Source of the DNA: Kiritimatiellia bacterium
Lineage (GTDB): Bacteria; Verrucomicrobiota; Kiritimatiellia; RFP12; UBA1067
Length of the DNA: 64,000 nucleotides
Direction of reading: 5' to 3'
Assembly (NCBI GenBank): GCA_017542055.1
Contig: JAFXXW010000023.1
Span: 22,839 to 86,838 of the forward strand
The position numbers and the translations under genes are program-made. The notes under the pieces were generated by a model. That model was not told where the DNA came from and ran no database searches. It saw only the letters and a program-made list of their open reading frames with translations. This document shows, piece after piece, positions 14,724 to 58,931 of this stretch; position 1 is the first letter of the stretch, and the number at the start of each line of letters is the position of its first letter.

Positions 14724-14762
14724 TCAGCCTTTCACCAGCTTAAAACAATGTTAGTATCTAAT

Positions 14763-14791
14763 ATTATATCATATTCCGGCCAAAAAAGCAA
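14763..14791 (-). promoter_or_regulatory. Sigma70-type promoter upstream of gyrB
   Basis: Minus strand reads TTGCTT, a 17-bp spacer ending GGAATATGA, then TATAAT (extended TG-10). Belongs to the conserved promoter family in this window. Confidence 0.7.
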
Positions 14792-14808
14792 GCAAAATCT
14801 GCACCAAT

Positions 14809-14840
14809 CGGTAAATCGAACAATCGGTAAATCGGTAAAT
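14809..14840. repeat. 8-bp tandem repeat array (cggtaaat x4, one degenerate)
   Basis: cggtaaat cgaacaat cggtaaat cggtaaat, immediately upstream of the gyrB -35. The same array recurs at 51097 and 51825. Confidence 0.8.
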
Positions 14841-14842
14841 GC

Positions 14843-14932
14843 CGGGGGGGTGCCCACCCCCTCCCCCTATCGCCCAATAGGGCGTCACCCCCTCGCCATA
14901 CGGGGCGACACCCCGGGGGGTGCTTACCCCCC
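14843..14932. other. Cluster of GC-rich hairpins (homopolymeric G/C runs)
   Basis: Hairpins ggggggtg/caccccc, cgccc-aata-gggcg, tcgcc-atacgg-ggcga and gggggg-tgctta-cccccc. No T-tracts. Confidence 0.5.
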
Positions 14933-14993
14933 TCGCCCATACCCCCCCTTGAGCTTTTCCGTCTCGACCTGCACCCTGATTCCGATAGCCTTT

Positions 14994-20763: not shown

Positions 20764-21108
20764 TCATGGTTTCGGCAGTTCTGACTGTATGGCGGACAAC
20801 TGCTTTCTCATCTTCGGCAATACGCCGCGAACCGTTTCCCACAATGCCGCATAATCAACCCGCATGTATTCGTGGGCTATCATATTGCGAAGACCCACCA
20901 TCTTGTGCCATTGCACTTCCGGATGGTCGGCCTTCATCGCTCCAGACACCATGTGCGCCGCCTCGCCGATAATCATTATATAACGCTCGGCTGCGGCAAG
21001 CTTATCCTTGTTCTCAAGAAAATCTTCTTTCCGGATGCCGTCGGTCGATTCAAGCGCATCATCGATAGCGCCAAGAATATGCAGGATTCGATCGTAGTCG
21101 CGCATCAT
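20764..21108 (-). CDS. hepT: HepT-like (DUF86) toxin of a HepT/MNT toxin-antitoxin pair
   Basis: RNxxxHxY motif LRNMIAHEY. ATGA overlap with the upstream MNT gene. Confidence 0.8.
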   Translation of the reverse strand: MMRDYDRILHILGAIDDALESTDGIRKEDFLENKDKLAAAERYIMIIGEAAHMVSGAMKADHPEVQWHKMVGLRNMIAHEYMRVDYAALWETVRGVLPKMRKQLSAIQSELPKP

Positions 21109-21407
21109 ACGCTCACCATGTCCCTTCTTACTTCTTTGGCAAACCAAGGACTGCGCTCGTTGTCGATGCACCCATACGAGACAACATCCACTTCACGCCC
21201 CAGAACTCTCTCCATATCGTCTTTAAGGTCGATTGCGTCGAACAGGTTATACTTTGGCGCATACTCCACGAGAAAATCCACATCGCTGTCAGGGCGCTCT
21301 TCCTTGCGGGCGCAGGAGCCGAAGACCCAAAGCTTTTCGGCTTTGTGTTTCCGCGCGATAGCGTAGATTTCGTCCCGCTTCGCCCTGATCTCATCGAGCA
21401 TGCACAT
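21105..21407 (-). CDS. mntA: Nucleotidyltransferase (MNT) antitoxin
   Basis: GSCARKEERPDSDVDFLV nucleotidyltransferase motif. 100 aa. Confidence 0.8.
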   Translation of the reverse strand: MCMLDEIRAKRDEIYAIARKHKAEKLWVFGSCARKEERPDSDVDFLVEYAPKYNLFDAIDLKDDMERVLGREVDVVSYGCIDNERSPWFAKEVRRDMVSV

Positions 21408-21430
21408 GGATTTCCCCGTTAGATGCTAAT

Positions 21431-21459
21431 ATTATACCATATTCCCACCCGAAAAGCAA
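21431..21459 (-). promoter_or_regulatory. Promoter P1 of the MNT-HepT operon
   Basis: Minus strand reads TTGCTT, a 17-bp spacer, then TGGTATAAT. Confidence 0.65.
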
Positions 21460-21614
21460 GCAGAATCTGCGAAAACTCCCCAACTCCAAAACTCCCCCAA
21501 GCGAAAGCAACTCCCCACCCGTCAAGCGGAAAGCGGGGAAAGTGTGAGACGGGAGGTATGGTCAGTAGGCGGCGAGCTTGAGTTCGTCCGTCATGCCCTT
21601 GAAGAAATCCGAGT

Positions 21615-31628: not shown

Positions 31629-31657
31629 ATTATATCATATTCCGCCCGAAAAATCAA
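31629..31657 (-). promoter_or_regulatory. Promoter of the lpxI-lpxB-secA-ispD operon. Its -10 element lies 8 nt from the lpxI ATG, so the first gene is predicted to be leaderless.
   Basis: Minus strand reads TTGATT, a 17-bp spacer, TATAAT, then ATATAACA and ATG. Confidence 0.65.
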
Positions 31658-46858: not shown

Positions 46859-46942
46859 TGGTGCACCTGGTGGGACTCGAACCCACACGCCTTGCGGCAC
46901 TGGAACCTAAATCCAGCGTGTCTGCCATTTCACCACAGGTGC
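46859..46942 (-). tRNA. tRNA-Leu (anticodon TAG)
   Basis: Manual fold: acceptor GCACCTG/CAGGTGC; D-arm GTG..CAC; anticodon stem CTGGA/TCCAG with loop TTTAGGT; long variable arm; T-arm GTGGG TTCGAGT CCCAC; 3' ACCA. Confidence 0.8.
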
Positions 46943-50049: not shown

Positions 50050-51000
50050 CTACTTATCGCGCTGAAAAAAGTTGAATATTCCCGCCATCAAAGCGCCCGA
50101 AACCGAATGCCATACGCACGACACGGCCGAGGCGATGGCCGCCTCCGGCATGAGCGGAAAGTGCTTCCCGGCGAGGACTGTCGCAAGGCCCGCGTTCTGC
50201 ATTCCCACCTCGATCGACACCGTCCGCTTCTTGGGCGCGGAGAATCGGGCCGCCACGCCTGCCGCGTATCCCAAGAGATAGCCGAGCGCGTTATGGAGAA
50301 ACACCGCCACGAAAATCAGCACCCCAGACTCCATGAACTTGGCCCCGTGCGCCGACACCACGCCGCCCACGATGCACGCGAGCCCCAGCACCGCCAGGCC
50401 CGGCATAACTTTCATCGCCTCGCGATAGGCCGCGCGCCGTCCGAACGCGGAATTGAGCACGTAGCCGCCCGCCACCGGGAGGAGCGTCACGAGCAGAATC
50501 GACTTGAACATCCCGATCGCGTCGATGTCCACGTTCTCGCCCGCCAGCCACAGCATCAACAGCGGCGTCGTGAGCGGCGCGAAGAGCGTGGAAAACGTGG
50601 TGAGTCCCACCGAAAAAGCCACGTCGCCCTTGCAGAGAAACGTCATGATGTTGGATGACACCCCGCCCGGGCAGCAGCCCACCAGGATAAGCCCCACCCC
50701 TACCGCCTTGGGGAGCCCCATCACGTGCACCAGCAGCCACGCCACGCCCGGCATCACCATAAACTGCGCCAACGCCCCTACCGCGATATCCCAAGGCCGC
50801 GACGCCAAAATGCGGAAATCTTCCGTCTTGAGCGTCATGCCCATCGTAAGCATGATGAAGCCCAGCACCGCAGTCTGCGCATAGCCGCGCACCCAGTCGA
50901 ACACTCCCGGCGCGAAATACGCCCCCACCGCCACTCCGGCCACGAACAGCGGCGTCCACTTGGTCAACCACGCCGCCACCCTCTGCAATTGTTTCATCAT
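50050..51000 (-). CDS. Bile acid:sodium symporter (BASS) family transporter
   Basis: CPGGVSSN motif. The ATG at 51000 follows a GGAGAG SD; the track ORF starts at an upstream TTG. Confidence 0.75.
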   Translation of the reverse strand: MMKQLQRVAAWLTKWTPLFVAGVAVGAYFAPGVFDWVRGYAQTAVLGFIMLTMGMTLKTEDFRILASRPWDIAVGALAQFMVMPGVAWLLVHVMGLPKAVGVGLILVGCCPGGVSSNIMTFLCKGDVAFSVGLTTFSTLFAPLTTPLLMLWLAGENVDIDAIGMFKSILLVTLLPVAGGYVLNSAFGRRAAYREAMKVMPGLAVLGLACIVGGVVSAHGAKFMESGVLIFVAVFLHNALGYLLGYAAGVAARFSAPKKRTVSIEVGMQNAGLATVLAGKHFPLMPEAAIASAVSCVWHSVSGALMAGIFNFFQRDK

Positions 51001-51036
51001 CGTTCTTCTCTCCAAGTTTTGCTTTTTAAGCCGCGT

Positions 51037-51065
51037 ATTATATCATATTTTCCCCAAAATTGCAA
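51037..51065 (-). promoter_or_regulatory. Promoter-family copy upstream of the BASS gene (part of direct-repeat block B)
   Basis: Minus strand reads TTGCAA, a 17-bp spacer, then TGATATAAT. Confidence 0.6.
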
Positions 51066-51096
51066 GCGGAAAGTGCACATTCACACTAATCACAAT

Positions 51097-51128
51097 CGGT
51101 AAATCGATAAATCGGTAAATCGGTAAAT
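51097..51128. repeat. 8-bp tandem repeat array (cggtaaat x4)
   Basis: cggtaaat cgataaat cggtaaat cggtaaat. Confidence 0.8.
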
Positions 51129-51145
51129 TCTCAGTTAAACACCAA

Positions 51146-51167
51146 GGGCTGGGATTGCTCCCAGCCC
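51146..51167 (-). terminator. Perfect hairpin GGGCTGGGA-TTGC-TCCCAGCCC downstream of the DUF5615 gene
   Basis: 9-bp GC-rich stem with a 4-nt loop, followed on the minus strand by TTGGTGTTTAA. Confidence 0.55.
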
Positions 51168-51173
51168 CGAGTA

Positions 51174-51524
51174 TTAGCGCTTGATCCGGCAAGAGTAGTC
51201 GCGCAAGATACAGACCGTGTCGACCAATGAAGAACCGGCATTGGCCAGAAACCATTTGAGCCGCTCCATGATGGCTCGCCGATTGGGCTGTCTGAGCGCC
51301 ACCACCACTATTCCGGCATGATGCGGATGCAAGAGCGGAACCGTATGGTAAAAGTCGCGATCCGAAGTAAGAATCACCGCTCCCAACCTTTGGGCCGTCG
51401 CGAAAACATCGTCGTCCTCAGCGCCGAAATCGCACGCATCTTCAAACGCAATTGCGATATGCCCGCACTCCTCTACGACCTCGGCCGCAGACTTGGGGAA
51501 GTTCTCGTCCAGCAGAAACTTCAT
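51174..51524 (-). CDS. DUF5615 PIN-like toxin-type protein
   Basis: MKFLLDENFP start. 116 aa. Paired with a DUF433 gene. Confidence 0.7.
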   Translation of the reverse strand: MKFLLDENFPKSAAEVVEECGHIAIAFEDACDFGAEDDDVFATAQRLGAVILTSDRDFYHTVPLLHPHHAGIVVVALRQPNRRAIMERLKWFLANAGSSLVDTVCILRDYSCRIKR

Positions 51525-51757
51525 CAGACCACCGACAAATTACCGTACGGCATGTCTTCAAAGCTGGCAAGCGAACCTGCAAACGCGAAGACTGCGGAAA
51601 TGTCTTCCGAAGTAATGCTGGGATAATCCATCATTATATCGTTTACCGAATCGCCTCCGGCAAGCGCACCAAGCAATTGTGACACCAAAACTCTAGTGCC
51701 GCGAATGACCGGTTTGCCGTGGCAGACGGACGGATTTATCTCAATTCTTTCATTCAT
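51524..51757 (-). CDS. DUF433 domain protein (putative antitoxin)
   Basis: INPSVCHGKPVIRGTRV motif. Real start MNERIEI lies 7 nt from the -10 element. Confidence 0.7.
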   Translation of the reverse strand: MNERIEINPSVCHGKPVIRGTRVLVSQLLGALAGGDSVNDIMMDYPSITSEDISAVFAFAGSLASFEDMPYGNLSVV

Positions 51758-51764
51758 GCCTAAT

Positions 51765-51793
51765 ATTATATCATATTTTCCGCCAAATTGCAA
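51765..51793 (-). promoter_or_regulatory. Promoter of the DUF433-DUF5615 cassette (block A); predicted leaderless
   Basis: Minus strand reads TTGCAA, a 17-bp spacer, TATAAT, then ATTAGGC and ATG. Confidence 0.65.
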
Positions 51794-51824
51794 GCGGAAA
51801 GTGCACATTCACACTAATCACAAT

Positions 51825-51856
51825 CGGTAAATCGATAAATCGGTAAATCGGTAAAT
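51825..51856. repeat. 8-bp tandem repeat array (cggtaaat x4)
   Basis: Identical to the array at 51097. Confidence 0.8.
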
Positions 51857-51872
51857 TCTCTATAAACACCAA

Positions 51873-51894
51873 GGGCTGGGATTGCTCCCAGCCC
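51873..51894 (-). terminator. Perfect hairpin GGGCTGGGA-TTGC-TCCCAGCCC downstream of the giant gene
   Basis: Same hairpin as at 51146. Sits about 30 nt after the stop at 51924. Confidence 0.55.
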
Positions 51895-51923
51895 TCGATC
51901 GTTAGCGCTAAGCTAAAGCGTGC

Positions 51924-54900
51924 TTAGTTGTTAGGCGTGGCACTGACCTTGACGCGATAGAACACCGCAGTAGGCGTGCCATTCACCGCCGGCTTCACGG
52001 GGTCGACAGATGCGCTGGTCGCCAACTTGCGAGTGCCCTCGGTCTTACCTTCAGTGAAGCCCAGGTTGGTGGCCGCCTCGATGGAGTAGTAGAGGCCAGG
52101 CTTGGCAGTCGTGATCGTGACTTCAGTGGCATCAGCATCAAGCGCATCCGCCAGGCCTTCAGTCAGTTCATCGGATTCCGAAGCCGGGAACACAACCTCT
52201 TCATTGAGGTCATTGACCGGATCGACCTTCACTTCATACTTACCGTATGTCGCAGACTGCGTCACCGTGTAGTTGAAGTAGGTCTTGTAAGTTTCGGCCG
52301 TTACGCCAGTAGCGGCAGCGACCACAGCTTCCGGAATCTTCACCGAAGCTGCCGCGATAGCTGCTTCCTCGATCTGCGCCTGAGTCTTGCCCGCAGGGTC
52401 GACCGCCACTTCCTGCGTGGAAGTCGAATCGGTCGGATCGATGCCGGCAGACGCCAGCGTGTAGTAGCCAACCTCTTCGGCTTCCACCCACTTGTAGCCA
52501 TTAGGAATTTCCGAAGTCCAGGTAGCGGAAACCGCAACCGTAATACTGACTTTGCTCATGTCATTGTTGTCATCAACAACAGCAACCGCCTTTGTGGCGG
52601 AGAGCGAAGCTCCGGTCTCGATCCGAACATCGATCGTACGATTGGCATCATACTGGGCAACCGCAATCGCCGCGCCCTTGATGGTGGCACCATTGCCAGT
52701 AGGATTGTAGGAATAGGTGGCTACCGTGCCCGTAATGGAGGCGTTCATGGCAACGGACAAACTACCGTCACGGATTTCGATGCCGGACTCGCCTTTGACG
52801 ATGGCAGTACTGCCAACCGTTACATTAGCATGGCCCTGGACCGCGATACCGCTGTGAACATTTTCTCCACCAGTTGCCTCGGACGCATCAACCGTGCCGT
52901 TCACGACAATGTTGATCTCGTTCTCCTGATTCCTCAGGTTGCCGAGCACGAAGAGCATGCCCTTGACGGTGCCATTGACGGTCACATCAATCTTATTCTT
53001 CGTTGCATTGTTGGAGCCGAACACATTGAGACCATAGCAAGTGCCCTCAAGCGTGACATTCTGACCGATTGTGAGCGTACGCTTGCTGGTCAAATCGCCA
53101 GTGCCACGAATCTCAATCGGAGCCCAAGCAACATCAGTGCATGTAATCTTGCCCGTGCCAGTAACAGTCAAGCTACCACCAGCCAATGCAATTCCGTGCG
53201 TGGTAGTGATGTTGCAGTTGTTGAGATCAAGCGTAATGGCCTTATTCTCGGTCGTAGTAGCATAACGTCCCGAGCCCGCGAAGGCCGGCTCTGCACCCGC
53301 ATTCACGAAGAGACGCTCAGTCAGAGCCACATTGGACACCAACGTCACTGTCTGCCCGTCGGTTGCCGCAGCAAGCGCCTCAGCGAGGGTGGGATACAGC
53401 GTGGTGCCGATTTTGGCCTGAGCCATCGCGAAGGTAACATTGACGACCGAATCACCAGTCACAGCGGCAGTGTAGACATTGCCCACCGGAGCCGGTAGAT
53501 CAACCGGATCGGCTGCGCCCACCTTGATGGTGGCCGAGCTGACGAGGCGGTCACCATAGGGGGTCACCGTGAACGAGAGATCCGCGCCATCCTTGACGTA
53601 GAAGTAGGCTCCTGACGGACCGCCCATTTCAGCCGCGACAGCTTCCGGAACCTGACGGACCAGATCACCAATCGTTACGACGACATTACCGTCACCCGAC
53701 AGATAATCCATCTTAACCGTGCGGCGCTCGCCATAGCCATACTTGACGCGACGGTTGGGCGTCACACCGCTTATGGTCTCCACAATCCAGGTAGTGTCAC
53801 CCAAGAAGAAGGACATCTCATCGCCAATGACATAGCCGCCATCGACCGTGATGTCGATTCCCTGTCCGAACGAGACGGTCTCGCCCACATCGATCGTCAC
53901 CGCCTTATCAAGCACCAGCGCATCAGGCACCGCCTGAAGGAGCTTGACCGTCTGGCCAGCCTCGGCCGCCTCGAGGGCCTCGGAGAAGGTCTCGTACTTC
54001 ACGCCGCCGACCTCTGCGACCCAAGTACCGGCCTGAACGACCCAGTAGCCTTCCTGGAGCTTGGCAATACGGCCAGTGGCGAGGAAGTTCGTGCAGAGGC
54101 CGGAGTCGTCACCCTCTTCAGGGTTGACCTGCCAGAAGGAGCCGCCAGTAATGGTGATGAGCTGCTGAGCTACGTTTGCCTGGTTGACCGCCATGCCCGT
54201 CCAGCCAGTCTTGTACTGGTATTCAACAGCGGTGTTGTTCCTGTAGGTACCGCTATTGATGGTAACAGCAGCACCAGTGAACGGATAGACGCAAGCACCA
54301 GCCTGGGAATTGACGGTGACTGTGAGGTCTTCGAGCGTGACATTCGAGCCGGTTCGCGCCGTGATGGCGTAAACACCAGTAGCAACAATTGCGGTATCGT
54401 CCTGCGTGCAGTCGATGGTGCCGTTCTTGATGGTGACCGTGCCGCTCTTGACGTCGAACACGCTGCCGTTGCCGGAGGTGCCGGTACGGGTGATCTTGTG
54501 TCCGTTCAGGTTAATCGTGACCGGCGACATACCGGGACTCGGTTCCACGCGCTCCGTCAGCGTGATATCTTTGAGGACAACCACTTCCGCGTTATACGCA
54601 GTGGCCACAGCTACTGCCCCGGCCAGCGAATCGTAGAGGGTATAATCCACCCGGGCAACCGCTTCCTTGACCTCCATACCTTCCGGTCGAGTAACCGTGT
54701 CGGTATCGGCAGTAAGGGAAATCACCTTCTGAGAAGCGCCATTGATCACATAATCACCATCTGCCGTATAGGTGATGGTTACATTCTCTCCTATCCTCGC
54801 TTTATAGGTGTTGGTATCGGCATCAACCACTTCAGCATCCCCACCCTGCACCGAGATGGTCGTATTGTCCGGAACCTCGACAGTGAAGGTCTTAAACGCC

Positions 54901-57900
54901 AGTTTGAACGGAATGGTAATGGACAGATCGCCGGTCACCGCAGGAATGGTCGCTACAGCAACCGTTTCGTCCTCTTCCGGCTCTTCCGGTTCGATTTCTT
55001 CGGTGATATCTGCATCACCCATGACAACGGAGAGATCATCACTGTCCCCATCGATTTCGTAGTCCTCATCAGGCGTGATTGTGATTGTCACCTCAACACC
55101 GTGCTTGACCGTGTAAGGCGAAGCCGTACCCTTGATGTCGCTTGCGGAAATAGCAACCGAACCATGCTCAGTTGCAGCAACCGTAACCGTATGCGAAGCA
55201 GCATAGCCAATCGACACGACATTGCCCGCAGTGGCCGCCCAGGTGTCGGTGCCGAGGGTATAGGTGGTGCCAGCCGCAAGGGAAATCATACCGGTCGTCA
55301 TCGTCACCGTGCCCACGCTAGTAACGCCAGAGGCCGCATTAATCGTGAGATTCTTGTCGAGCGTGATGCTCTCGACATTCTTGTTGAGCGTAATCGTGTC
55401 GCCCTCGCTTGCGGCTTCAATCGCGGCAGCCAGAGTCGCATACGGCGTGTTGTCGTACGTCGCCTCCGCCAGAGTCGCCACGAGCTCGTAGTAACCGTTC
55501 TTGTAGTTCTTCGTGTAGAAGTAGTTGACATTGGTAGGAGGCACCACTGTCACCTTGTTGTCAGCCTGATCGATGAGACCGGTGAGCTGATATTCCCCTT
55601 CCGTAACGGCGAGACCCGAGCAGTCGAAGGTCAGCGAACCATCCGCGCTAAGCTGAACCGGAACACCGGTCAAGTCCAGCGCGCCATATTCCGTAGTCAC
55701 CGGAGTATTGATGACGGCAGCCGACGTCGGCTTGACAAAGTTGTCTTCCTCCTTTTCAACCGTAAGCGCCGCATTGCCGCCAATGGTCAGCGTCTCCACG
55801 TTGAGCGTTGCGTTAACGGCCAGAGCAGCGGCACCGTCGACCGTAATCGTCACGGAAGTATTGTAGCCTTCAACAACGCTTTCCGGCAGATCGTACTTGT
55901 TCTCCGTATCGCCGTCGCGATCCCACGCGTCAGTGGCTTCGAGTTCCACCTCGCCGGAAACCGTACGCGTGTAAAGACCACCCTGCGGGACGTAAGGATA
56001 GGCATCAACGATTGCTGCCGCCTGAGCATCCGAAATGGCGTAGTCGAACACCCGGATTACGTTTACAACGCCAGTCTCGGATTCATTGTCGGCAACACCC
56101 TTCCAGATGCCTGCACTGCGAACTCCATTACCGAAGTCCGCACCAACCTGCAAACCGGCCTGGGCAGTCGAACCAAGCGTAAACCCTTCACCGGCATCAA
56201 AGTTGCCACGCTTGATACCGTCAACCCAAACCGTGAATTCCGTTCCGCTCTTGACGATTACGTATGCATGGCGAGCAGTCGCCGCGTTCGGCACCGACAC
56301 CTTAACACCATGTGCATCGTCAACCGTACCGCCAGTATTCTTGGCGATCAAAACCTCATCGGCTTTCTCGGTAGTGGCAATCATGAGGCCGGTGCTGGTG
56401 CTGTGATACGAGCCACCCATGTGGACAAATATCGTCTTGGCTGTCGGCGACATCTGTCCCACCACAACCGCAGTAAAGTTATCGAGCGACGAGAACACGT
56501 CATTGGCATCATTGATGTAGGGCGAGCAACGCAGATAAAGACCGGTCGTTTCATCCCAAGCGTCATTATTGAAAGTCGCCGCGTGGTCGAAATACAGTCG
56601 CGCGCCTTCCTTTGCCTTGTAAGTGAAGGTGCCGGGGTTTTGACCATATCCAGACTTGCCGACATCGTCGCGATTGTTGGCGAAGGTGATATCGAACATT
56701 GTTGCCGCGCCGCCAATCTTCACTTCACCCGTGCCTCGAGAAGCGCTGCCGTTCTCCACCTCCAGAGTCGAGGTCGTTCCGTCGACGCGATTGAGCTTTA
56801 CGTACGAAACTCCTTCCAGATTGGAAACGGCAAACCTATCGTTTCCATATTCCGCTGACGTTTCTTTAATCACAACCGTCGAACCGGTAGTGAACTTAAA
56901 CTCTGCAGGCAACGTGCGGGTGGCACTGATATCGTACACCACATTGGCCCCCAGCGAAATGTCGCCCGTCACCTCGGTGAAATCAAGTTTCTCCACCAGC
57001 ACCTGCGTAAGTTCCGCCTCGCTCGTAAACGCCAGCGTGAAGGAACCGGAGCAAACAAACTTGACGTAATCGTACGTCTCCAGCAACGCAGCCAAATCAA
57101 CCGTGCTGGTTCCGCCGTCTGCAACTTCGATTGTCTTGAACGCCGGCTCAGCCTTGATGATCTGAACTGCCGCAAGACCGGCTCTGGCACCAGGCATGGC
57201 ACGGGTAGTGATCTTGAGCGTTCCTTCTTCACCTCGCGGCAGGATGGGGGAAACCAGATAGTTGCCGTTTTCGGTCAAAGTCGCATTATTGGCGGAACCC
57301 CACTTTTCGGTTCCCCAATACTCCACATCATTAAGCGAGACGTACCCAAACTGTCTGCCGTCGGTATCGTTCGAGAAATAAAGGACCACGCGATAGTAGT
57401 CGAACTCGGACGGAATACCGGTTATAGTGGCAATCGGCGTATCAGTCCCGTTGTTCCGATCGTCAATATAACCATGCAACAAACTCTTAGTCGCCTTGCC
57501 GCCACAGTACCAAGAACCTCTCGTGTCCTCCACCTTGACGCTTGTTCCGGCGGAAACCACCTTGTATCCGGCAGTGGAAACCTTGCTGACGGTCGAAAGC
57601 GGCGAATTGAACGTGCTACCGCCAACCGATGTCATCGTGCTCCAATACGTTCCCGGCACCGCATAGTCGCTCGCGCCAACCTTGCCGGAGGTGGAAATGA
57701 CGGTAGTGCCGGAAGCGAAGTTGATGTTGATGGAGGGATTCACATTACCGGTAAATCCGGCAATCGGCGTATTAGCATTTGCAATCGTAGCAATCTCTTC
57801 AGCCGTAAGCGCACCCTTGAAGATCGCAAAGTCGTCGATATAGGTCGTTCCAATGCTCTGCCCGCGAAGCGACGCATCAGCTGCAGAGCCGGCACGTCCC

Positions 57901-58931
57901 GGGCCCATTGCCGCCTGCTTCAGCACACCGGAAAAGCCGGAGGCGGTCTTGACGCTAGTTCCATTCTGATAAACCGTCAGGCTGCCATCGGTTCCGAATA
58001 CCAGCGCATAGTGCGCCCACTCGCCGGCAGTGTAGGCAAGTCCTGCAAACGGAGCATCGCCAGTGCCTCTATACATTGCAAACGAATCATTGGACATATG
58101 TTCCAAACGATAGTTCTCGCTACCGATGCGCAGCGCAATGAAGGAAGCCCAATCCTGAATATCGGATCCGATGTTGGCCCAGAACGAAACCGTGAAGCCT
58201 TCGGAAGTTCCGACGCCAAGGCCGCTCGTGTTGTCTGCCAGACCCAACGTGCCGCTATTGAGCTTGGCGGACTTAGTGCCAAACTTGACCTCGGTTCCAT
58301 CATAATTGCGATAACCGCTTTTCCAAGCTGTCGGAACTACGGTACCAATGCCGCCATCGGTCGCCAGCGCCACGCCGCCATCACCACAGTTGTCGCAAGA
58401 GATATAGTACAGTAGCTCGCTATGGACCAGCTTTAGACCCGAGACGCCATAACCATTCGTCGAATCGGAAGTGGCAGGAGCAATGGAAGCCTCTCCGTTG
58501 TAGGTGCCATTCTCACCTGACTCCTGGAAGCGATAACCTATGCCATTGGAAGCGGCGATATAACGGGCATTGGTGGCTACCGCCTTGATGTTATCGCCAT
58601 CCTGCGTAAGTTCCACGATAACGCACTTGATGTAGCTGCCATCCTTGGTTTGCAATTCGTAGCGCACCACGTCTTCGGACGAAGAGTTGGTGAACGTGTC
58701 GCGGTTGCACACGGCCGCAGGACCGGGATTGTCGATATAGCCGCCATCCATCGTTGCCGCGAGGAAGTACTTGGTGCCGATTTCCGAAAGCTGCACGCCC
58801 TCGAAAACGGTCGTCGCCGTAGTCGGCACGTACGCATCATATACGAGCGACGTTGCCCATGCACTTGTTCCTAGTATTGCCGCGCATGCGAGGGCGACAA
58901 AACGCATAACCCTTCCTGACGTATGTTTCAC
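51924..58931 (-). CDS. Giant (2335 aa) secreted repetitive surface protein with two LamG/concanavalin-like domains and beta-helix-like repeats
   Basis: GTG start with an AAGGAGG SD. Sec signal MKHTSGRVMRFVALACAAILGTSAWA. LamG-like segments FTVSFWANIG...LTVYQNG and IFVHMGG...FTVWVDG. Thr/Val/Gly-rich repeats. C-terminal FYRVKVSATPNN. Confidence 0.7.
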   Translation of the reverse strand: MKHTSGRVMRFVALACAAILGTSAWATSLVYDAYVPTTATTVFEGVQLSEIGTKYFLAATMDGGYIDNPGPAAVCNRDTFTNSSSEDVVRYELQTKDGSYIKCVIVELTQDGDNIKAVATNARYIAASNGIGYRFQESGENGTYNGEASIAPATSDSTNGYGVSGLKLVHSELLYYISCDNCGDGGVALATDGGIGTVVPTAWKSGYRNYDGTEVKFGTKSAKLNSGTLGLADNTSGLGVGTSEGFTVSFWANIGSDIQDWASFIALRIGSENYRLEHMSNDSFAMYRGTGDAPFAGLAYTAGEWAHYALVFGTDGSLTVYQNGTSVKTASGFSGVLKQAAMGPGRAGSAADASLRGQSIGTTYIDDFAIFKGALTAEEIATIANANTPIAGFTGNVNPSININFASGTTVISTSGKVGASDYAVPGTYWSTMTSVGGSTFNSPLSTVSKVSTAGYKVVSAGTSVKVEDTRGSWYCGGKATKSLLHGYIDDRNNGTDTPIATITGIPSEFDYYRVVLYFSNDTDGRQFGYVSLNDVEYWGTEKWGSANNATLTENGNYLVSPILPRGEEGTLKITTRAMPGARAGLAAVQIIKAEPAFKTIEVADGGTSTVDLAALLETYDYVKFVCSGSFTLAFTSEAELTQVLVEKLDFTEVTGDISLGANVVYDISATRTLPAEFKFTTGSTVVIKETSAEYGNDRFAVSNLEGVSYVKLNRVDGTTSTLEVENGSASRGTGEVKIGGAATMFDITFANNRDDVGKSGYGQNPGTFTYKAKEGARLYFDHAATFNNDAWDETTGLYLRCSPYINDANDVFSSLDNFTAVVVGQMSPTAKTIFVHMGGSYHSTSTGLMIATTEKADEVLIAKNTGGTVDDAHGVKVSVPNAATARHAYVIVKSGTEFTVWVDGIKRGNFDAGEGFTLGSTAQAGLQVGADFGNGVRSAGIWKGVADNESETGVVNVIRVFDYAISDAQAAAIVDAYPYVPQGGLYTRTVSGEVELEATDAWDRDGDTENKYDLPESVVEGYNTSVTITVDGAAALAVNATLNVETLTIGGNAALTVEKEEDNFVKPTSAAVINTPVTTEYGALDLTGVPVQLSADGSLTFDCSGLAVTEGEYQLTGLIDQADNKVTVVPPTNVNYFYTKNYKNGYYELVATLAEATYDNTPYATLAAAIEAASEGDTITLNKNVESITLDKNLTINAASGVTSVGTVTMTTGMISLAAGTTYTLGTDTWAATAGNVVSIGYAASHTVTVAATEHGSVAISASDIKGTASPYTVKHGVEVTITITPDEDYEIDGDSDDLSVVMGDADITEEIEPEEPEEDETVAVATIPAVTGDLSITIPFKLAFKTFTVEVPDNTTISVQGGDAEVVDADTNTYKARIGENVTITYTADGDYVINGASQKVISLTADTDTVTRPEGMEVKEAVARVDYTLYDSLAGAVAVATAYNAEVVVLKDITLTERVEPSPGMSPVTINLNGHKITRTGTSGNGSVFDVKSGTVTIKNGTIDCTQDDTAIVATGVYAITARTGSNVTLEDLTVTVNSQAGACVYPFTGAAVTINSGTYRNNTAVEYQYKTGWTGMAVNQANVAQQLITITGGSFWQVNPEEGDDSGLCTNFLATGRIAKLQEGYWVVQAGTWVAEVGGVKYETFSEALEAAEAGQTVKLLQAVPDALVLDKAVTIDVGETVSFGQGIDITVDGGYVIGDEMSFFLGDTTWIVETISGVTPNRRVKYGYGERRTVKMDYLSGDGNVVVTIGDLVRQVPEAVAAEMGGPSGAYFYVKDGADLSFTVTPYGDRLVSSATIKVGAADPVDLPAPVGNVYTAAVTGDSVVNVTFAMAQAKIGTTLYPTLAEALAAATDGQTVTLVSNVALTERLFVNAGAEPAFAGSGRYATTTENKAITLDLNNCNITTTHGIALAGGSLTVTGTGKITCTDVAWAPIEIRGTGDLTSKRTLTIGQNVTLEGTCYGLNVFGSNNATKNKIDVTVNGTVKGMLFVLGNLRNQENEINIVVNGTVDASEATGGENVHSGIAVQGHANVTVGSTAIVKGESGIEIRDGSLSVAMNASITGTVATYSYNPTGNGATIKGAAIAVAQYDANRTIDVRIETGASLSATKAVAVVDDNNDMSKVSITVAVSATWTSEIPNGYKWVEAEEVGYYTLASAGIDPTDSTSTQEVAVDPAGKTQAQIEEAAIAAASVKIPEAVVAAATGVTAETYKTYFNYTVTQSATYGKYEVKVDPVNDLNEEVVFPASESDELTEGLADALDADATEVTITTAKPGLYYSIEAATNLGFTEGKTEGTRKLATSASVDPVKPAVNGTPTAVFYRVKVSATPNN

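Follow-up and report, generated by a model that had tools for sequence, protein, structure and literature searches.

A strain-variable array of toxin-antitoxin cassettes separated by a predicted terminator-promoter block in uncultured Kiritimatiellae

How does a pair of small genes come to lie between two nearly identical copies of a noncoding block, and what does the block do there? The question was raised by a locus in a 64,000-nucleotide stretch of DNA (hereafter the window) from a Kiritimatiellia bacterium (assembly GCA_017542055.1, contig JAFXXW010000023.1, positions 22,839 to 86,838 of the forward strand), where the two genes resemble a toxin-antitoxin (TA) pair of the DUF433 and DUF5615 families. 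All position numbers given here are those of the 64-kb window, and the block, the array and the cassettes are read on the minus strand. The original prediction, made from the sequence alone, was that of one TA cassette inserted between two direct repeats of about 130 bp, excisable or phase variable and carrying its own leaderless promoter. We compared the locus with related metagenome contigs and found that another reading is the most probable one (roughly 65%), namely that the locus belongs, as a single unit, to a small array of TA cassettes on the chromosome, which is reshuffled by homologous recombination and gene conversion between copies of the block.

The two direct repeats are real, and they are longer than had been proposed. 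In a gapped alignment they measure about 146 nt, run from AGCGCTAA to TATAATA and reach 13-15 nt further, so that the last toxin codons (AAG CGC TAA) fall within the repeat. The upstream copy (51763-51909, minus strand) was delimited by alignment of the copies and a repeat finder, and the downstream copy (51035-51180, minus strand) by the same two methods and by promoter and terminator scans. The repeat finder matched 51025-51132 with 51753-51860 at 94% identity and 51136-51167 with 51863-51894 at 100%. The copies differ by three mismatches and one indel ahead of the hairpin that they contain, by a three-position patch after the hairpin and by two mismatches in the promoter spacer. Both the 32-mer quoted in the original prediction and the 22-nt hairpin occur exactly twice in the window, versus an expectation of zero from shuffled sequences.

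Open reading frames (ORFs) and Pfam confirmed that exactly one two-gene, TA-like cassette lies between the repeats. The two genes are co-oriented, with the antitoxin first and an overlap of 1 nt, which is the gene layout of type II TA systems. The first (51524-51757, minus strand) encodes a predicted DUF433 (COG2442) antitoxin of 77 aa, a length also annotated on several contigs (PF04255, E = 4e-22, 78.2 bits with a cut-off of 23.6). The second (51174-51524, minus strand) encodes a predicted toxin of 116 aa with a Mut7-C-like PIN domain, DUF5615/PIN_10 (E = 2e-17; PF18480, 63.5 bits with a cut-off of 23.8; PF18478, 28.7 bits with a cut-off of 26.2). The TA genes are under purifying selection: codon differences were 27 synonymous versus 7 nonsynonymous relative to one related contig (L030) and 41 versus 11 relative to another (L032). 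The pairing of DUF433 (COG2442) with PIN has been predicted to be a type II TA system (PMC2701414), and DUF433/PIN-like pairs of the COG2442-COG4634 type have been classified (PMC5499597). The pair Rv2018/Rv2019 of Mycobacterium tuberculosis (VapB45 = Rv2018) likewise combines DUF433 with a PIN-like protein (COG4634/PIN_10/DUF5615). In the window a small DUF433 gene is followed by an overlapping gene for a Mut7-C-like PIN protein, and the proteins themselves are ordinary for such TA pairs. Unlike the known DUF433/PIN pairs, however, the window pair has a promoter that is common to unrelated TA families, which argues against cassette-specific operators and makes cassette-specific autoregulation by the antitoxin questionable there.

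The block consists, in order, of AGCGCTAA, a 10-bp hairpin terminator with a GNRA loop, four copies of ATTTACCG, a 21-mer and a promoter. In the upstream copy, the perfect 10-bp palindrome TTAGCGCTAA (51902-51911), recognized from the sequence, the block catalogue and RNA folding, lies within a small stem-loop ahead of the terminator. The block of the window starts with (AA)GCGCTAA; its counterpart in other cassettes, TAATCGCGCTTTAGC-TTAGCGCTAAC from the stop codon, holds a perfect 10-bp palindrome and a small stem, the fuller stem form, which starts at the stop codon, being TAATCGCGCTTTAGCTTAGCGCTAAC. The hairpin GGGCTGGGA-GCAA-TCCCAGCCC followed by TTGGTGTTTA (51873-51894, minus strand) resembles an intrinsic terminator and would serve the giant gene upstream; it is predicted to be Rho-independent, with a stem of 10 pairs (7 of them GC) and the moderately U-rich tail TGGTGTTTAA. 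Its RNA fold z-scores were -5.6 in this copy and -4.4, and it dominates the DNA and RNA folds (z from -3.2 to -5.6). The loop variants in the block catalogue, GCAA and GCGA, both fit GNRA, and the stem variants are wobble changes. Next comes the 8-nt array (51822-51856, minus strand), which has 4.4 copies of ATTTACCG in both blocks according to Tandem Repeats Finder (one unit being ATTTATCG) and 3 to 9 units across strains. Between it and the -35 box lies the conserved 21-mer GTGATTAGTGTGAATGTGCAC (51801-51821, minus strand), and the promoter itself (51765-51793, minus strand; promoter scan and sequence) has a -35 box TTGCAA, a 17-nt spacer and a TG-extended -10 box TATAAT. The corresponding parts of the downstream copy, also on the minus strand, are the hairpin at 51146-51167, the array at 51094-51128, the 21-mer at 51073-51093, the -35 box at 51060-51065 and the -10 box at 51037-51042. 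Consensus scans flagged the promoters of both copies and the terminator of the downstream copy.

Promoter, array and hairpin were thus found in each copy, as the original prediction had it. The -10 sequence ATATGATATAAT, the promoter-family part of each repeat, is the general promoter consensus of the organism; the window has nine copies, every one of them on the minus strand, ahead of housekeeping genes such as argG. The ATTTACCG array, too, occurs once more with a generic promoter, at 14762-14840 (minus strand), there with neither hairpin nor 21-mer and ahead of a gene read as gyrB from its N-terminus, not from a Pfam result. The block thus combines generic parts with others that are specific to the locus. 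To judge from consensus scans and folding, it would end transcription of the preceding unit and restart it for the next. The DUF433 ATG begins 8 nt after the -10 box, so that a leaderless mRNA, or one with a 1-nt leader, is predicted; leaderless transcription looks likely for this operon only, and the second copy drives the gene of a transporter of the bile acid:Na+ symporter family (SBF) through a Shine-Dalgarno leader of about 30 nt with GGAGAG. In other strains SBF has its own promoter (TTGACC, 17 nt, TATAAT). Other TA families have the same block promoter ahead of them, and so do SBF and PPDK, which are housekeeping genes; both promoter and terminator are part of the block that the cassettes share, and a cassette with a promoter of its own was not borne out.

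Related contigs were gathered by exact-protein look-ups, and every block in them was catalogued. The names given to identical or homologous proteins point to Kiritimatiellae of ruminant and gut metagenomes. What had been taken for a single insertion proved to be a multicassette array, with further block copies framing other cargo. Besides the DUF433 and DUF5615 pair (C1), the cassettes comprise an 83-aa protein with a VapBC-like PIN (C2), a 56-aa protein with a GNAT-like protein of 202 aa (C3), DUF3791, DUF3990 and an 82-aa protein (C4), Unstab_antitox with a toxin remnant (C5), and a 126-aa fusion of the C2 and C5 antitoxins (C2'). All are TA operons of one to three genes and TA-like by Pfam, and the arrays reach three cassettes with four blocks. 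In the window, L001-L004 and L024/L025 the order is giant gene, block, C1, block, SBF. In L023 and L027, C1 is followed by the hairpin and SBF's own promoter. A variant giant gene is followed in L013-L015 by block, C2, block, C3, hairpin with own promoter and SBF, and in L016 and L017 by block and C3 on the way to SBF. The PPDK-linked arrays (L036-L039, including contig JAFVHU010000010.1 of a metagenome-assembled genome, MAG) run from a giant gene of 1496 aa through block, C4, block, C3, block, C2' and block to PPDK and on to rpmH-rnpA-yidC. L031 has C4, block, C5, block and C1, and in L005-L010 and L030 the giant gene and C1 are followed by the hairpin (with or without the array) and a module of 195/211-aa and AAA_25 genes.

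Some of these contigs share the window's downstream anchor. The SBF protein of L013-L018 is identical to that of the window, and the DNA is 96-98% identical from the SBF -10 box onwards; in place of C1 these strains hold C2 and C3, or C3 alone, each bounded by the block. One backbone therefore carries different cassettes. The cassettes also recur in other orders and at a second chromosomal site, and copies of the C3 (GNAT) cassette from the SBF context and from the PPDK context share 98% identity. PPDK-linked and window-type contigs co-occur in the same three samples, and the PPDK-linked array (L036-L039) comes from a genome closely related to that of the window or perhaps from that very genome.

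These differences have the marks of recombination between blocks. Between L013 and L017, which are otherwise collinear and 98.5% identical, the difference is a stretch of 758 bp that corresponds to C2 plus one block. The lone block left in L016 and L017 is chimeric: its spacer (3') variant and its leader (5') variant come from different blocks of L013 (blocks 1 and 2), as expected of a crossover product. Over 10,351 nt, L002 and the window differ only in three clustered changes at 51861-51864, which turn ATAGAGA into AACTGAGA, exactly the sequence of the downstream copy; a gene-conversion patch is thus indicated, and with it a recent exchange of sequence between the two copies. Block variants were each found with more than one cassette (ACACTCG versus ACGATCGA ahead of the hairpin, spacer ATTTGGCGG versus TTTCGCCGG, and a long form versus a short form that lacks the array and the 21-mer), and they tend toward uniformity within a single array. 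Short blocks accompany the C3 cassette (98% identical) in L013, and long ones accompany it in L036. On the left, homology begins at various distances before the hairpin: 7 nt (C2 PIN), about 16 nt (DUF5615), about 20 nt (C5/C2') and 33 nt (C3, C4 and giant genes). Scattered breakpoints, conversion patches and concerted evolution together argue for general homologous recombination rather than for a fixed-site recombinase. In addition, the ATTTACCG array of the last block before PPDK has four versus three copies between contigs that are 99.1-99.8% identical (L036 versus L037 and L039), so it behaves as a fast-changing variable-number tandem repeat. The original idea that the cassette can be inserted or excised by recombination between the repeats is therefore upheld at the level of populations, in that strains differ by whole cassettes plus block and carry a conversion patch; no sign of active excision was found.

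Exchange of this kind has a precedent in the minimal mobile elements (MMEs) of Neisseria, in which alternative cassettes between conserved flanks are swapped by homologous recombination, with no recombinase devoted to the task. Here, too, one set of flanks was found to enclose alternative cargo, the junctions are mosaic, and no dedicated recombinase was found. In MMEs, however, the arms are the flanking conserved genes, with one cassette per site, whereas here they are a noncoding block of 90-150 nt repeated in tandem, with multicassette arrays, deletion within the array and gene conversion. The exchange of whole cassettes would accordingly fit two known kinds, cassette arrays and exchange of the MME type.

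The mechanism that we favor would work as follows. The block would separate every cassette from the next gene, terminating one unit and restarting the next, and would thereby insulate each cassette. Its copies, being in direct orientation, would double as portable homology, on which RecA-type recombination and gene conversion could act within the chromosome or with incoming DNA of a related strain. Cassettes would in this way be deleted, inserted, replaced and reordered, and the blocks would be kept alike. Cassettes between direct repeats would be easily lost, and addictive TA modules would survive as cargo, which would explain why all the cassettes seen are TA-like. This last step is suggested by analogy with the TA cassettes of chromosomal integrons, which are thought to stabilize those arrays (PMC4889954, PMC13108822).

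Several points weigh against shuffling by homologous recombination, or limit its reach. Recombination between blocks rests on the comparison of strains, from which we infer the enzymology, and the promoter, the terminator and the leaderless start are consensus-based predictions. None of the contigs compared has an empty site, in which a single block would join the giant gene to SBF, or a circle or excision junction, so that gain and loss are read from strain comparison only. An exact look-up with ArgG returned the window configuration only, and one with PGK returned contigs ending at the giant gene. SBF homologues at about 80% amino acid identity (L028/L029) and a PPDK homologue at 86% nucleotide identity (L045-L054) have no array, which speaks for lineage restriction and not for an empty site. 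The homology arms common to the long and short forms are only about 50-65 nt, which is short for efficient RecA recombination. Hairpin and palindrome stay identical even where the TA coding sequence of strains has diverged by 11%, and such strict conservation might also mark a site recognized by a protein. The related sequences all come from metagenome contigs or MAGs, in which repeats can cause mis-joins; that each configuration was assembled independently in two to five samples, by different assemblers, argues against this. The Joint Genome Institute (JGI) scan overlooked some contigs that do contain the hairpin, so copy-number estimates are lower bounds. Finally, the model does not account for the way in which unrelated TA operons first came to lie between copies of one block.

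Could a dedicated recombinase do the work instead? Integrons require an adjacent IntI, a tyrosine recombinase, and a cluster of attC sites lacking an integrase (CALIN) does not; an attC site has R'' (RYYYAAC) and R' (GTTRRRY) 40-130 nt apart around an imperfect palindrome with extrahelical bases, and the cassettes of integrons as a rule lack promoters and rely on a common Pc promoter for expression. The block array is like the arrays of the Vibrio cholerae repeat (VCR), of sedentary chromosomal integrons and of CALINs in being a tandem series of small cassettes in one orientation, with a hairpin repeat of about 90-150 nt after each cassette (conserved and about 100-150 nt in integron arrays), TA cargo and strain-variable content and order. 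An unlinked recombinase might then act at a fixed point on the hairpin and/or the TTAGCGCTAA palindrome, both of which are unchanged between strains that differ by 9-11% in their TA genes; moreover, the cassettes start near ATTAGGCA and end near (C)TTAGCGC, which share a weak TTAG(G/C) motif. We nevertheless consider such a site-specific system unlikely. No integrase, Phage_integrase or recombinase was found in the gene and Pfam tables over about 33 kb around the array, nor in a Pfam run on the neighbors; no RYYYAAC...GTTRRRY pair at a spacing of 42-137 nt occurs in the whole window on either strand; and single-stranded DNA folds of both strands gave only a perfect 10-bp stem with a 4-nt loop and U-rich tail, with no long imperfect palindrome like that of attC. 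An integron or CALIN proper was rejected on these grounds. Unlike the mostly promoterless cassettes of integrons, each cassette here would be expressed on its own, since every block is a terminator plus a full promoter and puts TTGCAA-17-TG-TATAAT directly upstream of the next cassette. Crossover points are scattered rather than fixed: the homology edge moves from 7 to 33 nt with the cassette, variants on both sides of the hairpin recombine independently, and the 51861-51864 patch is typical of homologous gene conversion. An undescribed cassette-capture platform, in which the block would be the site of an integron analogue that expresses and mobilizes operon-sized cassettes downstream of giant surface-protein genes, and in which an unlinked unknown recombinase or transcript-based capture would recognize the palindrome and the GNRA hairpin, seems to us improbable as well; transcript-based capture is conceivable because the cassette limits coincide with the predicted transcription start and terminator.

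Simpler histories fare no better. In a related species (L032-L035) the same TA pair, with a toxin 91% identical in amino acids, lies directly after a putative homologue of the giant protein, where terminator and promoter are different and repeats do not enclose it; C1 may thus be an old resident around which the array system grew. This would also suit a one-off local duplication, in which the intergenic region around an old TA pair was doubled once and the repeats have no role in turnover, and yet we hold that to be quite improbable, since strains with an identical SBF hold different cassettes at that position, or one cassette less, in each case between blocks, and since arrays of three cassettes and four blocks exist and conversion between copies was seen. 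A phase-variable switch, with reversible excision and reinsertion of the TA cassette or changes of the 8-nt array in a clonal population, could draw on the 146-nt direct repeats, which are able to recombine, and on the array, which has 3 to 9 units across strains and changes by one unit between 99.8%-identical contigs. The array, however, lies upstream of the -35 box (about -65 to -100), so its copy number leaves the -35/-10 spacing unchanged; the alternative forms in one sample differ by 9-12% in the TA sequence and hence come from different strains; and losing an addictive TA pair should be counterselected. Phase variation, which the original prediction had entertained, was therefore not borne out and is very doubtful. 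It is most improbable that the block is a generic dispersed intergenic repeat that flanks the TA pair by chance. Correia repeat enclosed elements (Correia/CREE), repetitive extragenic palindromes and bacterial interspersed mosaic elements (REP/BIME) and enterobacterial repetitive intergenic consensus (ERIC) sequences are short noncoding hairpin repeats able to supply terminators or promoters to their neighbors, and the nine copies of the -10 consensus in the window, the ATTTACCG array at 14762-14840 and another upstream of a ParE-type TA pair in L036 recall such elements. Unlike them, the complete block is confined to TA arrays, as are the hairpin, the palindrome and the 21-mer in all sequence examined, and the repeat finder and the alignment of copies revealed an internal hairpin only, with no terminal inverted repeats or target-site duplications at the block. 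The hairpin was found in 1 contig among 185,579 species-representative genomes and in 2 JGI metagenome contigs, both at this locus, and not in IMG/VR viral contigs, phage records or plasmid records, so that collection scans gave array loci only; on this basis a dispersed repeat or MITE (miniature inverted-repeat transposable element) was rejected. The block is not a ubiquitous intergenic element, then, and the TA pair is not in place in all relatives, though it is in the one related species (L032).

The array stands in a tract in which every gene around it is on the minus strand, in the order giant gene, block, two small genes, block, SBF and argG. Its upstream anchor is the giant gene (51924-58931, minus strand), whose stop codon leads immediately into the first block and which encodes a secreted-looking protein without a Pfam domain; its ORF in the window has 2335 aa, and it is annotated as 2327 aa on metagenome contigs. 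The downstream anchor, SBF, was identified by Pfam at 50050-51000 (minus strand). Paralogues or variants of the giant gene of 1496 to at least 1638 aa stand ahead of arrays in other contigs. The gene is hypervariable, with versions of 2327, 1638+, 1525 and 1496 aa (window 51924-58931; L030, L036, L056-L058) and a divergent C-terminus in L013-L017, and contigs of other samples end just before its start. The sole Rfam match in the window is a tRNA-Leu gene (46859-46942) between dnaJ and the gene of ornithine carbamoyltransferase.

Cassettes also decay, as the C2' fusion and C5, of which L031 keeps a toxin stub only, make plain. The 126-aa ORF of C2' (L036, 10786-11166; also L021, 3034-3381) joins the N-terminus of the C2 antitoxin to the Unstab_antitox C-terminus of C5 at a TTGATG microhomology; the intervening PIN toxin is deleted, which leaves an orphan chimeric antitoxin. 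The MAG with the PPDK-linked array (L021/L038, JAFVHU010000010.1) is labelled "Afipia sp." in NCBI; the label looks misassigned because its cassettes and blocks match contigs that their sources name Kiritimatiellae. The two-gene module (195/211 aa plus a helicase-like AAA_25 protein) was seen in L005 (5480-5760), L006 (1700-4000), L030 (10380-11706) and L041 (9400-11400), preceded by iteron-like repeats GCGTGYAGACTTTT and by GGGAAAAGCCCTGCGGGAGATTT in tandem. Some strains have it after C1, with its junction to the block at GTGCAC, and others have it between PMT_2 and tyrS; possibly it is a small integrative element resembling a replicon.

Promoters of the block's family are found elsewhere in the window. 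Nine near-identical ones ((c)TTGa..N17..cGGAAATATGATATAAT) lie at 14774, 18727, 21442, 31640, 39023, 50024, 51048, 51776 and 62972, all on the minus strand, and their conservation reaches well beyond the -10 hexamer. The one at 31640 likewise has an ATG 8 nt past the -10 box, so that leaderless starts may be common in this organism. Upstream of the putative gyrB, the region 14762-14960 combines G/C-rich repeats, the ATTTACCG array and a promoter, and by eye it is close to positions 2540-2700 of L036, the region with a ATTTACCG array upstream of an Unstab_antitox/ParE-type TA pair; if this likeness is real, array-plus-promoter modules would be common to housekeeping and TA promoters. A putative second operon of TA type (20764-21407, minus strand), read from motifs and not from Pfam, encodes a 100-aa nucleotidyltransferase (MNT) and a 135-aa HEPN-like protein. 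It has a promoter of the same family (about 21429-21442) and a leader, ATTAGCATCTAACGGGGAAATCCATG, that resembles the cassette leaders, and it is preceded by another 8-nt tandem repeat, AACTCCCC in three copies (21474-21497), with no bracketing hairpin block. In two IMG/VR viral contigs (L059 and L061, GC 54%, near 494 and 11292) a terminator hairpin is followed by ATTTACCGATTTACCGATTTATC, the terminator-then-array arrangement of the block with a different hairpin. Four matches of two to three ATTTACCG units in viral contigs were judged unrelated or uninformative.

To our knowledge, almost all known gene-cassette arrays belong to integrons, which depend on a dedicated integrase and on attC sites. 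The literature searched contained no earlier account of arrays like these from Kiritimatiellae, nor of TA arrays that do without an integrase and have terminator-promoter spacers. The locus described here reaches an integron-like outcome in an uncultured lineage of the gut and rumen: an ordered, strain-variable array of TA operons with no integrase found nearby, in which one repeat of about 90-150 nt, to all appearances a functional terminator-promoter unit, frames every operon. If plain homologous recombination is indeed responsible, a modular expression spacer alone could make a locus a site of cassette shuffling, and addictive TA modules would be what endures as cargo between direct repeats, which would offer a simple model for the assembly of TA and defense islands. 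In addition, the block may serve as a compact natural terminator-promoter "insulator" part for Kiritimatiellae, and the array as a marker locus by which strains could be typed in metagenomes of the rumen and gut.

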